Shown here piece by piece: positions 2,817-7,553 of a DNA stretch of 13,866 bases. The position numbers were made by a program, and so were the translations under genes. The stretch is from the UHGV virus genome UHGV-0091536. One strand, given 5' to 3'. This DNA comes from a virus. Each line of letters begins with the position of its first letter. The first letter of the stretch is position 1. The notes beneath the pieces are model-generated. The model searched no databases, was not told the origin of the DNA, and saw only the letters and a list, made by a program, of their open reading frames with translations.

Positions 2817-3335
2817 TCACAGGCCGATATTGCGGCGGTGTTGCTCCAGCCGGTCGACGCCGTTCACCTTCTCAATCATGTTGATGGTGTCGATTTCGAC
2901 CAGCTCCTTACCGTCCATCGTCAGCCGGAAATAGGTGCAGACCACGGAGATTTTCGACTCGGTGTCTTCTCCCTGTTTGCCCTCGCCGGTGTCGATTTCT
3001 TTCTGACGTCCACGCATGACCACTTCGACGGCCACCGTTTCGCCGGTATCGTCACGCTGGTAAGAGCCTGCAAAACGAATCGGCACAGCATCCACACCGG
3101 TTGCGGCGTAAAGCTCCCAGATAACCGAATCCGGGAAGCCACCGAGCGACCACTCCATTGACAGCGCATCGTCATCAAGGCCGAGGTCTACCGGTGCGCT
3201 GCCGTTCATCCCCGCACCGCGATAGTTTTCGAGCTTACGGGTCAGTTTTGGCAGCGTGACGGACTTTGCAACGCCCTGATAGCTGTAGCCGTTCAGAAAG
3301 ACGTTCATTAACTTGAGTTTGCGCGGCATTGCCAT
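2817..3335 (-). CDS. FII: Tail tube protein FII (P2 gpFII), 172 aa
   Basis: ORF 2817..3335 (-) translates MAMPRKLKLMNVFLNGYSYQGVAKSVTLPKLTRKLENYRGAG.... Length and sequence match the P2 tail tube family. AGGAG RBS upstream (minus-strand aggagcctgacc ATG). Confidence 0.9.
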   Translation of the reverse strand: MAMPRKLKLMNVFLNGYSYQGVAKSVTLPKLTRKLENYRGAGMNGSAPVDLGLDDDALSMEWSLGGFPDSVIWELYAATGVDAVPIRFAGSYQRDDTGETVAVEVVMRGRQKEIDTGEGKQGEDTESKISVVCTYFRLTMDGKELVEIDTINMIEKVNGVDRLEQHRRNIGL

Positions 3336-3347
3336 CGGTCAGGCTCC

Positions 3348-4157
3348 TTAATTGCTGTTAACCGAAGTGACCAGATTTGCCAGGTATTTATCGGTAATGC
3401 GCTGGCGCAGGGTCAGATTTTCAAGAGGAGGCACCGGGGTATAGTCGTAGTCGATATACAGTTTTCCGGCCTTGAGGGTTTCCGCATCGTTGGACTCTTC
3501 GCTGAACCAGCAGGTCGCATCCACGATATAGCCGTTTGTTTTCAGCTCACGGAATTTGGCATTGATGCCGTCAACGATGTCGCGAATCAGCGTTGCGGTG
3601 ATGGGCTTGTCCACCGCCCACATGTGCGCCTCAGCCATCGTGTCGGCCAGCACCTGCGCGGTGCGGGTGTAGTTTTCAAAGAGGAACAGCGGGTCATCAG
3701 AGCAGGTACGGTTACCCCAGAAGCGGAAACCGTCACGGCGAATCAGCGTTGTGACGCCTGACTCGTTAAGCAGGTCAGCATCGGTGCCGGACTCCTGCAA
3801 ATCCCAGAATACGGACGCGCTGATGCCGGTAACACCGTTCACCCCGACGTTGGACAGCGTTTTATGCCAGCCCTGCTCCTGGTCGATTTTAGCGCGCAGA
3901 CCCAGCGCACGGGCGGTGGCATACGCGGTAGCGGTGGTACTGGCGACCGTATCCCATGCGAGGAAATCCGGCCAGATGACCATCAGCTCACGCTGGCTGA
4001 AATTCTGGCGGTAGGCTTTCACCTCGGAAATGGTCTTACAGCCCCATGCGCTGATATACCCGAAAGCGCGCAGCTTCTGACAGACTGATGCCAGTGCTAC
4101 AGCCACCTCTTTGGTATCCAGTCCCGGCACACCAAGAATACGCGGTTTAACACCGGT
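3348..4157 (-). pseudogene. FI: Contractile tail sheath gene FI, 5'-truncated remnant (C-terminal ~270 codons only)
   Basis: Sheath-like sequence begins abruptly at ...[25 protein letters not shown]... and runs to the C-terminus ...[22 protein letters not shown]. The ~38 residues upstream in the ORF ([38 protein letters not shown]) are the gpI 5' end read in the wrong frame. No ATG or RBS sits at the start of homology; P2-type sheath proteins are about 390-400 aa. Confidence 0.75.
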
Positions 4158-4275
4158 TATCCGGGTTCCACAGCTCACGAATACTGACCGGCGTTTTTTC
4201 AATTTCCGCACAGGCTCTTGCGGCGGCGACTTCAAGCGGTGATGAGCCGGTCGGCAGCAGGCGCGAATCACTCAT
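4147..4275 (-). pseudogene. I: Baseplate gene I, 42-codon 5' stub (39 gpI-like codons, then NRC and stop)
   Basis: ATG at 4275-4273 overlaps the J stop (gATGAgtga). It translates [39 protein letters not shown], matching the gpI N-terminus as I recall it, followed by NRC* where the sequence becomes FI in another frame. Full-length gpI is about 176 aa. Confidence 0.7.
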
Positions 4276-5180: not shown

Positions 5181-5528
5181 TCAACTCACAGGGATGGTTA
5201 ACGAAAGTGGCTGGCCGGTGTCGTTGTGCTGGCCGGTTAACGTGACCGTCATTCGCCCGTCAAAACTGCGCGCCGTGGTGACGGATGACAGGGTGACGCG
5301 GGGTTCCCATTTCAGCACCGCCATGTAACAGGCGACCTTAATCTGCAACTCAAGCGCCGGGGTCTGCGGCTGGTCAATCATTGACGCCAGCAACGAGCCG
5401 TAATCACGACGCATCACCCGTGAGCCGACCGGTGTGCGCAGGATATCGCCGATACTCTGGCTGATATGCTCAAGGTCAGTGACAGTCAGGCCATCACTGC
5501 GATTCATTCCGAGATAACGCGCTGTCAT
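5181..5528 (-). CDS. W: Baseplate protein W (P2 gpW, gp25-like), 115 aa
   Basis: ORF 5181..5528 (-) translates MTARYLGMNRSDGLTVTDLEHISQSIGDILRTPVGSRVMRRDYGS.... Its start overlaps the V stop (ATGA). Confidence 0.9.
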   Translation of the reverse strand: MTARYLGMNRSDGLTVTDLEHISQSIGDILRTPVGSRVMRRDYGSLLASMIDQPQTPALELQIKVACYMAVLKWEPRVTLSSVTTARSFDGRMTVTLTGQHNDTGQPLSLTIPVS

Positions 5529-6160
5529 AGAGGTCCCCCGGTTGTGCCGCCGCTGTCGCCGGGGTGTTTATGGGTATGCAGTACCTTACCGTTTGATGAG
5601 AGTTCACCGCCGGTGTGTTCAATGTTGCCGCGCATCGTCCCGCCCTTCTGTACTTCCAGCGTGCCGGTAATCAGCCTGTTGGTGCAGACCACCTCCGGTG
5701 TGTCCAGGGTGATGCGGGTTGACGCTTTCACCATGACCACCGGCACCGTGGCGGTAACAGAATCAGAAGCCGTCACGCTGGCCGTTTTTATTCCGCTTAC
5801 CGTCAGTGCACTGGTTTCAGGTTCATACTCAATCACCGCCCCGTCAGGGAAACGTATGTGCAGGGCATCCGCCGACGCAGACGGCGGAGGGTTATCGCCG
5901 GAATAAATCCCCGGCAGAACGAACGCCGTGTCGAGTTCACCGCCCACGGACAGAATCAGCACCTGTTCCCCCACGGAAGGTGCCCACCATGTGCGCGAAC
6001 GTCCGGCACGATGGGTCAGCCACTGAAGCCAGTCGGTGCACATGCCGCCGGTCTGCACACGGCAGCGACCGGCGTTAAGGTCGGTTTCGACGATAATGCC
6101 GGTGCGGATCATGTTGCGCAGTGCGCGCGCGAGTTCCTGAATATTTGCGAGAGTGTTCAT
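5525..6160 (-). CDS. V: Baseplate spike/assembly protein V (P2 gpV), 211 aa
   Basis: The track ORF 5525..6178 begins at a non-ATG codon (MCNLTR). The conserved start is the internal ATG at 6160-6158, giving MNTLANIQELARALRNMIRTGIIVETDLNAGRCRVQTGG..., which matches the gpV N-terminus and a 211-aa length. Confidence 0.88.
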   Translation of the reverse strand: MNTLANIQELARALRNMIRTGIIVETDLNAGRCRVQTGGMCTDWLQWLTHRAGRSRTWWAPSVGEQVLILSVGGELDTAFVLPGIYSGDNPPPSASADALHIRFPDGAVIEYEPETSALTVSGIKTASVTASDSVTATVPVVMVKASTRITLDTPEVVCTNRLITGTLEVQKGGTMRGNIEHTGGELSSNGKVLHTHKHPGDSGGTTGGPL

Positions 6161-6243
6161 GCGTGTGAGATTGCACAATATATAAAAGTTATGCTATCTG
6201 GATTCATTTGTAGAACGACCATACAACATTCGAGGAGAGCGTA
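6161..6243 (+). promoter_or_regulatory. Putative promoter and strong RBS for the cargo ORF
   Basis: GAGGAGAG at 6232-6239 lies 4-5 nt upstream of ATG 6244. Candidate sigma70 elements are TTGCAC (6171-6176) and a weak TG-extended -10 (tgcTATCTg, about 6192-6200) with roughly 18-bp spacing. The region is AT-rich. The promoter assignment is tentative. Confidence 0.35.
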
Positions 6244-7029
6244 ATGTTCAGTGATAATGTGACTAATGCGTGGTGGTTTATCTCTTTGTATCTATTTTTA
6301 TTAATAGCATTAACATTTATTACCTTTGGTAAAAGTAATCTTATGAGGTTTATTGCACATCATTTCAATTTTGAGTATTCAGACAGAAAGTTAAAAATGC
6401 TCGACAAAAAATGGCGCGACATTCAACTATTTAAAATAATTAACGGAATCAATGTATCAGGCATCGAAGATGTGAGAATGATACAGCAGGGGCTGATTGA
6501 TGGAAAACTAAAAACATCGTATTTTTTTCTTACTCGCTTCTGGGGTGACATAACAAAACCACCACACATAATTAAAACAATAATTGTAATTCTGTCCAGC
6601 ATTATTTATATTCTCTTCGCATGTTATATACACAACAAACAATCCGCTATAGTAAGAGATGCCATAGGCATACCATATAAAAATATGATGTACTATGTTT
6701 ATAGTGACAAAGTTCTTTTATCCTTCAACAATAAAACAGTTGAATTCAATAAAACTTATAGCCTTGCCGATTGCAAGAGGCTACGAAACGTATTTATAAA
6801 AGACACACTTCCTGAGATCGCCTGCAATAAGCTCTTACAGCTAAACGAGGAGGACTCGGAATGGTTAAGTCAGGAGATTAAAGATAATAACAGCCAAAAA
6901 AAAGCATTATTAATAATATCCCTCATCTATTTCATTTCAGGTCTGGTTATATTCCTGTCATATACAAAATTCCTTTACGCCAATAAGAAGGTTGTAGAAT
7001 ACAAAGCATCAAATAAAAATCACTCATAA
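6244..7029 (+). CDS. Hypothetical membrane protein, 261 aa, AT-rich cargo (moron) gene at the S-V junction; function unknown
   Basis: Complete ORF on the strand opposite the whole late operon. Three hydrophobic segments predicted by eye: about aa 9-28 (AWWFISLYLFLLIALTFITF), 108-129 (IIKTIIVILSSIIYILFACYI) and 221-240 (ALLIISLIYFISGLVIFLSY). It is Lys/Asn/Ile-rich and uses many AT-rich codons, while flanking P2 genes are GC-rich. Strong RBS upstream and a hairpin terminator downstream. I recognise no homolog. Confidence 0.75.
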   Translation: MFSDNVTNAWWFISLYLFLLIALTFITFGKSNLMRFIAHHFNFEYSDRKLKMLDKKWRDIQLFKIINGINVSGIEDVRMIQQGLIDGKLKTSYFFLTRFWGDITKPPHIIKTIIVILSSIIYILFACYIHNKQSAIVRDAIGIPYKNMMYYVYSDKVLLSFNNKTVEFNKTYSLADCKRLRNVFIKDTLPEIACNKLLQLNEEDSEWLSQEIKDNNSQKKALLIISLIYFISGLVIFLSYTKFLYANKKVVEYKASNKNHS

Positions 7030-7035
7030 ACCTCT

Positions 7036-7070
7036 AAACATTGAGCGACCAGCATGGCCGCTCAATGTTT
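7036..7070. terminator. Bidirectional intrinsic terminator hairpin between the cargo ORF (+) and S (-)
   Basis: Perfect 12-bp stem aaacattgagcg (7036-7047) / cgctcaatgttt (7059-7070) with an 11-nt loop. It is followed by tttaatt on the + strand and by a moderately U-rich stretch on the minus strand. It lies exactly between the two convergent stop codons (7029 and 7101). Confidence 0.6.
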
Positions 7071-7100
7071 AATTGCGCATCAGCCTCTGCCTGGATAAAA

Positions 7101-7553
7101 CTAACGCTCAAGGTGAGCCAGGATAATCTCTTCAATCATCTGCACATCCTCACTGGTAAAGCCGAGCAGAGGACGCGCCGGATAATCAATTTTCTTACCG
7201 TCTTTCCGGTTTTCTTCCGACAGACCGAACTGATGCACGCTGGCGATTTTCGGTGACTTCCCGCCGTAAAACTCCATTGATGCCTGTTCCGGGCTGGCGC
7301 GGATATGCAAAAAACGACTGGTGATAAGTTTCGCAAACATTTTTCGCTTAACACGACCAGTCTTTTTTCTGGCGCTCTGCTGCTGGCGTGGCGCGTAGGG
7401 TGTGCCGTCCGGGGCTTTCTGAGCCATCACCCGACGCTGCTGACTCTGCCGCAGACGTTTCGCCAGTTCGGCGCTCAGTCGCCGACGCCCTGACGGTGAC
7501 AGCGATTCAATCAGTCCGGTCAGCCGGTCTTCAAAACGCTTAAACTCATTCAT
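7101..7553 (-). CDS. S: Tail completion protein S (P2 gpS), 150 aa
   Basis: ORF 7101..7553 (-) translates MNEFKRFEDRLTGLIESLSPSGRRRLSAELAKRLRQSQQRRV.... Length and order after R match P2. Confidence 0.9.
   Translation of the reverse strand: MNEFKRFEDRLTGLIESLSPSGRRRLSAELAKRLRQSQQRRVMAQKAPDGTPYAPRQQQSARKKTGRVKRKMFAKLITSRFLHIRASPEQASMEFYGGKSPKIASVHQFGLSEENRKDGKKIDYPARPLLGFTSEDVQMIEEIILAHLER

Follow-up and report, generated by a model that had tools for sequence, protein, structure and literature searches.

Bacteriophage P2 is among the best-studied temperate phages, and its old, tin and fun hotspots have yielded many anti-phage systems, in line with hotspot surveys according to which the TO and Z hotspots of P2-like phages hold many such systems. 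Recent surveys treat the old/tin, Z/fun and tail-CI positions, and the junction between the tail genes S and V lies outside the surveys examined. In P2 this junction carries a gene that is labelled 'orf30, Orf30, nonessential' in the record AF063097. The Orf30 protein of P2 is listed as 'unknown' in PMC3091744, where the orf30 position is given as one of three foreign-gene regions in P2-like phages, and no paper assigning a function to orf30 was found in the literature searched. The present analysis concerns the gene at the S-V junction of the UHGV virus genome UHGV-0091536, a stretch of 13,866 nucleotides that is referred to as the window. An open reading frame (ORF) with an ATG start, specifying 261 amino acids and a stop codon, is located on the plus strand of the window at positions 6244 to 7029.

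The nearest functional analogue with data is Kunado (YmfE) from the cryptic prophage e14, an H-NS-silenced membrane protein with a proposed role in superinfection exclusion (Sie) of T5-like phages. Kunado resembles the window protein in being prophage-encoded, AT-rich, of similar size and organized as a single-gene cassette, and presumably also in being silenced by H-NS, but it belongs to another prophage family and position, and a phenotype is demonstrated for Kunado only. Homology between the two proteins was rejected on the basis of an hhalign probability of 0.1%. The small inner-membrane proteins SieA of P22, Imm of T4 and gp15 of HK97 are encoded outside structural operons and block genome entry. 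They are shorter than Orf30 and devoid of two folded soluble domains, and no sequence or fold relation to them was detected in the Pfam, PADLOC, PHROG, PDB and BFVD searches.

The window gene is an allele of bacteriophage P2 orf30, a member of the phrog_2407 family, and hence a gene that is already known. The deduced protein matched the phrog_2407 profile with an E-value of 8.3e-144, residues 1-261 being aligned to profile positions 1-261, and showed 84.7% amino acid identity to P2 Orf30 (AAD03281.1, AF063097) and 99.2% to the counterpart in Peduovirus P24A7b. At the nucleotide level, a 1.4-kb region of the window was 94-99% identical to Peduovirus genomes, and the orf30 cassette was 100% identical to that of a prophage in E. 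coli A36. The window gene and P2 orf30 have in common the length of 261 amino acids, the S-V position, the orientation, the upstream region and a terminator hairpin; the window gene differs in being a separate allele and in residing in a prophage that has lost 4.7 kb of its tail-fibre region. A sequence-only reading of the window had put the gene forward as undescribed and had cited the orf30 position without recognizing orf30 itself, so that this claim is withdrawn at the level of the gene. A search of Pfam with the window protein resulted only in a sub-threshold match of DUF6535 to the first transmembrane helix (TM1), and NCBIfam yielded nothing. What is new is found at the family level, namely a deeply diverged, junction-tied family of non-enzymatic membrane proteins.

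The orf30 gene is AT-rich accessory cargo, consisting of the coding sequence and a shared terminator, and separates the late O operon, which ends with S, from the late V operon, which starts with V. The left anchor is the gpV baseplate spike gene (5525..6160, minus strand; Phage_base_V, Phage_spike and Apex) and the right anchor is the gpS tail completion gene (7101..7553, minus strand; Phage_tail_S, E=2.7e-44), with gpR as the next gene after gpS among the minus-strand flanking genes. The G+C content in 300-nt windows is 0.32-0.35 across positions 6150-7049 versus 0.56-0.62 in the flanks, and that of the coding sequence is 0.323 versus 0.575 for the tail genes on both sides. Among 80 viral contigs with a gpS gene 98-99% identical to that of the window, 48 junctions were empty (66 bp), 30 were occupied by the family and two contained other AT-rich cargo. 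In a set of 5426 complete E. coli genomes, a P2-type gpS was detected in 1576, at least one empty junction in 1024 and the orf30 cassette in 464 (about 9%); the latter occupied 482 places, all of them chromosomal and none on plasmids. Carriage of orf30 thus amounts to about 30-38% of the close P2 relatives, the remainder being mostly empty. The foreign G+C content (0.32 versus 0.58), the 30 occupied versus 48 empty junctions and the hairpin terminator are the properties expected of an accessory 'moron' gene. These results bear out several statements of the sequence-only reading, which had described an AT-rich plus-strand ORF for a 261-residue protein with three transmembrane helices between the GC-rich minus-strand genes S and V, as now also indicated by hydropathy and by the Pfam matches of the flanks, and had taken the S-V junction for a known variable site of P2-like phages, as is documented in PMC3091744 and by the counts of occupied and empty junctions.

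The genes at old, tin and Z/fun (the TO and Z hotspots) are likewise AT-rich, nonessential cargo between operons or at operon ends and are seen as horizontally acquired. The TO and Z hotspots, however, carry many unrelated systems, whereas the sampled S-V junctions were either empty or occupied by one superfamily, other cargo being rare. The empty 66-bp junction, exemplified by phage pro483 (L014, 1762-1827), has a G+C content of 0.62 and a GC-rich hairpin of its own (GCCGCCGG..CCGGCGGC), and neither end of the 940-bp orf30 junction (6161-7100) shares any sequence with it. Consequently, the whole intergenic region differs between the empty and the filled state, including the stretch with the pV promoter in P2, and the pV promoter of phages with near-identical S and V genes is embedded in intergenic regulatory DNA that differs entirely. 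Direct or inverted repeats bracketing the cassette were not found, and a search for an insertion signature ended in rejection, as the boundaries are gene ends and the mechanism is unreadable from the cassette ends.

A word-indexed search with the window protein retrieved only four close clusters and one relative with 41% identity. A profile search of 1.84 billion representative proteins extended the family to 44 proteins, about 25 of which are full length (249-271 amino acids) and 17-32% identical to the query; the distant members are also covered by the phrog_2407 profile. The family alignment revealed a common layout with a helical segment between TM1 and TM2, a two-cysteine segment between TM2 and TM3, and a basic tail after TM3. 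Loop 1 contains the family motif D-x-Q-L...G-(I/V)-N-V...D-A, and in loop 2 residue C194 is invariant and C177 near-invariant, with 2.00 cysteines per sequence family-wide. This architecture and these motifs are kept down to about 20% identity. A conserved set of catalytic-type residues was not present in the family alignment, in agreement with the absence of a catalytic motif noticed in the sequence-only reading.

The genomic context was sampled for 11 family members, eight of which are located at the gpV/gpS junction on the strand opposite to the tail genes, so that homologs recur at the S-V junctions of P2-like prophages; the remaining three have a non-phage or unresolved context, one of these being next to a DsbA-like gene. 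In a comparison of five lineages, the family proteins were 22-41% identical versus 47-85% for V, W, J, S and R, and every copy had a G+C content of 0.32-0.35 versus 0.52-0.58 in the flanks. Since diverged P2-like lineages carry relatives of only 22-41% identity at this very junction, a one-off recent insertion is not tenable. Vertical co-divergence with the tail genes was rejected as well, because the Orf30 groupings conflict with the V and S groupings; it follows that recombination moves the cassettes from one P2-like phage to another.

Further loci illustrate the range of the family. Two tandem Orf30-family paralogs of 256 and 252 amino acids, both with strong matches to the family hidden Markov model (HMM), are located beside gpV in a prophage that is degraded and has a truncated J gene (L107, 4001-5658). 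The closest relative outside E. coli, with 41% identity, was found at a contig end of Enterobacter sp. (L016, 1-788), where the contig ends inside the gene; the neighbours look chromosomal (an outer-membrane beta-barrel protein, PadR and chemoreceptors), and gpS and gpV were not detected in the contig DNA examined. This copy may represent an orphan of the Orf30 branch. Two short metagenome contigs (L111, 66-1743, and L112) carry the distant member P0017 of 250 amino acids, which is divergently oriented to a gene for a DsbA/thioredoxin-fold protein. The neighbourhood of P0017 and the DsbA-like gene, a single association, is weakly suggestive of a periplasmic disulfide in the Cys-pair domain.

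The allele set indicates that Orf30 is a functional protein with constrained soluble domains. All 42 full-length alleles, comprising 33 distinct nucleotide sequences and 28 distinct proteins, are intact. The ratio of nonsynonymous to synonymous substitutions (omega), calculated according to Nei and Gojobori, is 0.45 for orf30 versus 0.05-0.14 for V, W, S and R, which is 3-8 times the value of the flanking genes. Separation by segments assigned an omega of 1.18 to the N-terminus and TM1 (TM1, residues ~10-28, 6271..6327), 0.35 to loop 1 (residues ~29-108, 6328..6567), 0.52 to TM2 (residues ~109-130, 6568..6633), 0.23 to loop 2 (residues ~131-220, 6634..6903), 1.42 to TM3 (residues ~221-241, 6904..6966) and 0.33 to the tail that extends to residue 261. 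Diversifying selection on the soluble surface was rejected on these grounds, as the raised overall value of 0.45 stems from TM1 and TM3.

Location of the protein in the inner membrane is predicted by three Kyte-Doolittle peaks above 1.6 (residues ~11-29, ~109-127 and ~221-239), by a positive-inside pattern and by long helices in the structure models, which include a helix of residues 5-40 for TM1. The AlphaFold model has a confidence score (pLDDT) of 86 and displays two folded soluble domains, loop 1 being helical and loop 2 consisting of a four-strand sheet and helices; relatives in structure were not found in PDB or BFVD. Lysine or arginine residues are missing before TM1, loop 1 has a net charge of +5 family-wide, loop 2 has a net charge of 0 and the tail is basic. 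The charge pattern together with the cysteine pair in loop 2 points to a topology with the N-terminus outside, loop 1 in the cytoplasm, loop 2 outside and the tail in the cytoplasm. Accordingly, we infer that the conserved Cys-pair domain lies in the periplasm.

A second group of proteins extends the picture. The family protein of locus L108 matches Pfam DUF6216 (PF19723) over the full length above the gathering score and also matches phrog_2407. Matches to DUF6216 with E<0.01 were obtained for five of 24 family members, one of them above threshold, and the window protein gave no match at E<0.1. In the retron-Eco1 remnant of E. coli BL21(DE3), the DUF6216 protein WP_000115390.1 (L115, 26316-27122) is the product of an opposite-strand gene that lies exactly in the S-V gap and has a G+C content of 0.33. 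Neither BLASTP nor the family HMM detected a relation between the window protein and WP_000115390.1. An hhalign comparison of the Orf30 family with a 15-sequence DUF6216 alignment resulted in a probability of 79% (E=1.6e-5), a supportive value, though one that falls short of the usual level of proof; the alignment spans 160 columns between TM2 and the tail, and the Cys pairs coincide. The BL21 protein is similar to Orf30 in its length of about 265 amino acids, the three transmembrane helices, the Cys pair, the S-V junction and the opposite strand, but differs in a much shorter TM1-TM2 region that is unalignable with Orf30. Orf30/phrog_2407 and DUF6216 are thus probably branches of one superfamily that owns the S-V junction. 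The DUF6216 gene at the BL21 junction was reported as an H-NS peak in chromatin immunoprecipitation and as upregulated in an hns stpA mutant (H-NS preprint). By analogy with this relative, orf30 would be subject to H-NS silencing as well.

The persistence of these genes in decaying prophages provides information on the side on which they act. The prophage of the window is defective and lacks about 4.7 kb that are present in the intact A36 prophage (L002, 1293-5998), with the joint near 4160-4163 (window 2817-4275). The lost segment comprises the 5' third of the sheath gene, the 'lysogenic conversion protein' at the Z/fun position, G, H and most of I, so that a truncated sheath ORF (3348-4271) abuts the baseplate gene J, while orf30 is intact. 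A remnant in E. coli B (L113, B-RalR, yegP-yegR) contains an orf30 gene whose product is 99.6% identical to that of the window, beside truncated gpS, portal and tube genes, and E. coli DC71 harbours an intact orf30 beside a truncated gpV. The E. coli B lineage carries both branches in two remnants, orf30 between yegP and yegR and DUF6216 near retron Eco1 (rcdA-ybjL), which makes the standard laboratory B strains ready-made test beds.

For the DUF6216 branch, a decay series was read from species-representative genomes at one chromosomal site (ybjL / rcdA-ybjJ-ybjI), the same as that of the BL21 prophage (L116-L120, around 3001-3800). A Buttiauxella metagenome-assembled genome (MAG) shows intact J, W and V, the DUF6216 gene, and S and R within 6.8 kb, to which the evidence from this genome is limited. 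Citrobacter youngae contains an intact DUF6216 gene amid fragments of V, S and R only, and a MAG of an uncultured member of the Enterobacteriaceae retains an ogr remnant and the DUF6216 gene. In Citrobacter sedlakii (L118) the gene order is ybjM-ybjL-[gene]-rcdA-ybjJ-ybjI, with the DUF6216 gene as the sole phage-derived gene detected. The flanking genes of the series are orthologous at 81-96% (L117: 39-92%). A search for the Orf30 branch in species-representative genomes found nothing. The survival pattern speaks against a part in virion assembly or lysis and in favour of an advantage to the host; a role on the side of the lysogen or host is indicated because the presence/absence polymorphism, the 'nonessential' label in P2 and the survival in decayed prophages all fit it. 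In this respect the sequence-only reading, which had separated the gene from virion structure and lysis, is supported, as no such link was found. One copy is disrupted: in E. coli 98224 (L009, 2581-4702) the orf30 allele is split by IS2 and the flanking tail genes are annotated as intact.

The orf30 gene is preceded by a GAGGAG Shine-Dalgarno sequence (6232..6237, plus strand) 6 nt before the ATG, as the sequence-only reading had noticed in part by naming a GAGGAG ribosome-binding site, and (G/A)AGGAG is kept in all close alleles. The 83-bp V-orf30 intergenic region (6161..6243) includes the divergent late pV promoter, according to the P2 record and the allele alignment, and is identical at 80-83 of its 83 positions among alleles whose coding sequences are 86-96% identical; constraint by the essential pV promoter would explain this invariance. 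At 15-42 nt ahead of the orf30 ATG, the P2 record has the entry 'activator binding site; activation of pV promoter', and positional transfer from AF063097 (1803-1830 in the P2 locus, offset 4399) places the putative Ogr activator site of pV at 6202..6229 on the minus strand of the window, which leaves about 15 nt to the ATG. A motif resembling ACACAAC(A) was detected at the same distance from V in diverged lineages. A scan of the plus strand of 6161-6243 with the sigma-70 consensus yielded no site, and manual promoter candidates (TTGCAC ... TATCTG) upstream of orf30 were rejected as too weak. The orf30 promoter must overlap the 83-bp region or lie inside gpV. Independent transcription, as assumed in the sequence-only reading, does not follow from these data, with no convincing sigma-70 promoter upstream, about 15 nt to the pV site and the H-NS-silenced BL21 relative as the source of the only expression data.

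Upstream of the genes of the DUF6216 branch, a block of the type CTTCTTGCAAATT...GATGGTACAAATTGAT...AAAGGA is conserved in six of six loci (L115, 27123-27225; 220 nt upstream in L116-L120). In the three loci with an intact or near-intact gpV this block contains TGT-N12-ACA, which we take to be the consensus of Ogr/Delta-type activators. In the three most decayed loci TGT is changed to TAT, yet TTGCAA and TACAAA at a spacing of 16 nt are kept, even in orphan copies. The retention of the hexamers along with the altered TGT is compatible with a promoter of the cargo gene in which the pV activator site serves as the spacer. In that case, binding of an Ogr-type activator late in infection could shut the cargo gene off.

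Downstream of orf30, a hairpin that has an A-tract at one end and a T-tract at the other is located at 7035..7071. The stem is formed by 7035-7047 and 7059-7071 (13 pairs, ViennaRNA), with a free energy of -21.3 kcal/mol on the plus strand and -26.8 kcal/mol on the minus strand (z-scores of -6.0 and -6.2), and none of 200 shuffled sequences folded as well. The hairpin is present in all close alleles with differences confined to the loop, and a scan for RNA families produced chance-level matches only, for example that of a miRNA model to the hairpin, which fell well short of the gathering score. In the P2 record it is annotated as 'putative rho-independent terminator for O operon', on the strand opposite to orf30. 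Because of this annotation and the good folding on both strands, the hairpin is best read as a bidirectional intrinsic terminator common to orf30 (plus strand) and the late O operon ending with gpS (minus strand). The perfect 12-bp hairpin of the sequence-only reading was recovered as the core of the 13-pair stem, while its assignment to the end of orf30 has to be shared with the operon on the opposite strand.

Cargo other than orf30 was encountered at a few S-V junctions. The IMG/VR sequences L073 and L085 have a 1039-bp junction with unrelated AT-rich cargo (G+C content of 0.33) that contains ORFs of 66 and 126 amino acids, possibly one frameshifted soluble protein, and a hairpin of its own (GGCCACGATA..TATCGTGGCC); the S-proximal 60 bp resemble the empty-type junction, with a second GGCACAA motif. 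In L109 (2965-4816) and L110 the junction comprises three cargo genes on the same strand. The first encodes a protein of 180 amino acids with an HExxH motif (NWFMHEFVHIWQH) and no family match, the second a lipoprotein of 133 amino acids (lipobox LTGC) that matches DUF7480 and NF045617, 'putative T6SS immunity periplasmic lipoprotein' (E=5e-20), and the third a protein of the Orf30 family; T6SS denotes the type VI secretion system. The HExxH and lipoprotein genes look like an effector-immunity pair beside the VgrG-like spike gene. The 741-bp ORF at the junction of phage R18C (L121, 1081-1821; MN016939, 9380-10120) was rejected as a family member, as it is located on the same strand as the tail genes and encodes a soluble, HNH-like protein that is matched by neither HMM; it has a G+C content of 0.36, a CxxC...H...CxxC pattern and a sub-threshold match to HNH_5. 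The R18C paper gives P2 ORF30 as '261-bp-long', the actual length being 261 codons (786 bp). The HNH-like gene of R18C and the HExxH and T6SS-type immunity lipoprotein genes of L109 suggest that other S-V cargo is of a conflict type, which provides context for an exclusion function.

Taken together, orf30 probably benefits the bacterium at the envelope rather than building the virus. The reading that we favour, with a probability of roughly 0.4, is that of a host-side envelope factor that acts at the inner membrane to exclude phages or contractile machines related to them. Orf30 would be made on the lysogen side and conditionally, not for virion assembly or lysis, with H-NS silencing the gene owing to its AT-richness. 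The protein would be inserted with its N-terminus outside and its C-terminus inside, exposing an 80-residue helical domain to the cytoplasm and an 85-residue, disulfide-stabilized domain to the periplasm. The periplasmic domain, anchored at the inner membrane by TM2 and TM3, may interfere with something arriving from outside, the likeliest target being the entry of the genome of a superinfecting phage, in the manner of a Sie-type block, or the puncture inflicted by related contractile tails. The domain in the cytoplasm may be a lineage-specific addition. Contextual support for the anti-phage direction comes from the characterized P2 accessory genes, which are anti-phage, and from the analogous but non-homologous Kunado, which blocks T5-like phages.

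Several observations weigh against this interpretation. None of the defence families of PADLOC-DB 2.0 matched the window protein at E-values up to 10, and searches with four other family members gave nothing meaningful, the best match being that of one member to PD-T4-10_B (E=0.018, 12 bits); a meaningful match to PADLOC models is thus missing for every family member tested. No paper linking orf30 to a phenotype was found in the literature searched, and the exclusion phenotypes classically known from P2 lysogens are assigned to old, tin and fun. As neither homology to Kunado/YmfE nor a relative in PDB or BFVD was detected, the evidence for Sie consists of architecture and context, and the superinfection-exclusion or abortive-infection effector named in the sequence-only reading is retained here as a candidate. 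The H-NS data and the cleanest cases of a 'last gene standing' belong to the DUF6216 branch, which is only a probable homolog (79%). The defence against T5 and Gostya9 gained by BL21 hns and hns stpA mutants was wholly dependent on retron Eco1, and hence the derepressed DUF6216 gene did not visibly block either phage. Additionally, purifying selection on the soluble domains is unusual for a direct arms-race surface, and the IS2-split allele, the only disrupted copy among the loci examined, is a counter-example to maintenance.

Several of these points would also be compatible with an envelope protein that promotes host fitness by stress tolerance, bacteriocin or T6SS immunity, or colonization and is unrelated to phage exclusion. 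Retention after complete loss of the prophage needs a host benefit only, a membrane-anchored periplasmic Cys-pair domain suits many envelope roles, the junction of L109 and L110 includes a T6SS-type immunity lipoprotein and an HExxH protein, and both the missing defence-model match and the lack of T5/Gostya9 protection by the derepressed BL21 homolog agree with such a function. We nevertheless consider it somewhat unlikely, given that eight of the 11 sampled members are found at a single junction in a single phage family and not spread over chromosomes or plasmids, that none of the 482 E. coli places is on a plasmid and that the characterized genes at the other P2 variable sites are anti-phage. 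An abortive-infection or toxic membrane effector, conceived as an H-NS-silenced pore-former or depolarizer that kills or arrests the infected cell, would account for three transmembrane helices without an enzymatic motif in a single-gene cassette, for an omega of at least 1 in TM1 and TM3, and for the silencing of the probable homolog by H-NS in the same manner as the adjacent toxic Eco1 effector. Such a function is improbable, as the conserved and selected parts of the protein are the two soluble domains and not the transmembrane helices, a toxin is unlikely to persist as a lone orphan with a kept promoter-like block, the 940-bp cassette contains no partner gene for a sensor or antitoxin, and the PADLOC models of abortive infection were without a match.

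Class I holins have three transmembrane helices with the N-terminus outside and the C-terminus inside, and are small proteins of about 90-130 amino acids that are encoded by the late lysis cassette and required for lysis. The inferred topology of Orf30 equals theirs, including the charged C-terminal tail, and the strictly conserved position between the lysis and tail-completion genes and the baseplate genes might likewise be taken as a sign of a helper in the lytic cycle that acts on lysis timing (holin- or antiholin-like), on tail or baseplate assembly or on DNA ejection. That the gene has such a task is very unlikely, since it is annotated as nonessential in P2 and missing from about 60% of the phages with near-identical S and V, is oriented opposite to the lysis genes and all late operons with a pV activator site at a distance from its ATG that is too short for activation of orf30, and remains intact, like DUF6216, in prophages unable to make tails or heads. 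With 261 amino acids and two folded soluble domains the protein is moreover unlike holins, and the near-identical A36 prophage encodes a separate holin-family gene. Finally, the overall omega of 0.45, at 3-8 times the flanking genes, the frequent absence of the gene and the IS2-disrupted copy would be expected of decaying or selfish AT-rich filler whose ORF persists by chance. This notion is hardly credible in view of the 42 intact alleles out of 42 with 33 distinct sequences, the omega of 0.23-0.35 in the soluble domains, the architecture and motifs kept to about 20% identity, the AlphaFold pLDDT of 86 and the intactness of the gene across genera while its neighbours decay.

Beyond the proposal of a host-side factor that excludes phages or contractile machines at the inner membrane, Orf30 and DUF6216 might constitute a new class of inner-membrane guards, without structural precedent, against contractile injection machines, including P2-like phages, R-type tailocins and possibly T6SS. 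Expression of these guards would be gated by H-NS and, in late lytic growth, shut off by Ogr bound inside the promoter of the guard gene. In this extended form, which we regard as unlikely, the genes, which adjoin a VgrG-like spike gene, would protect the lysogen, and later the domesticating host, from puncture or genome delivery.

The interest of these results lies in the family-level picture and not in this locus alone. The orf30 gene is not a stray insertion; about 9% of the complete E. coli genomes contain it, among them those of laboratory strains of the B lineage. The pattern of conservation during prophage decay along with the published H-NS silencing in BL21 makes it a well-defined and cheap experimental target. 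If Orf30 is an exclusion or immunity factor, the S-V junction would be a third functional hotspot in P2-like phages, and the protein would represent a new membrane-protein fold in bacterial conflict; if it is not, orf30 would be one of the few examples in which a prophage gene has been domesticated for a different task at the envelope.

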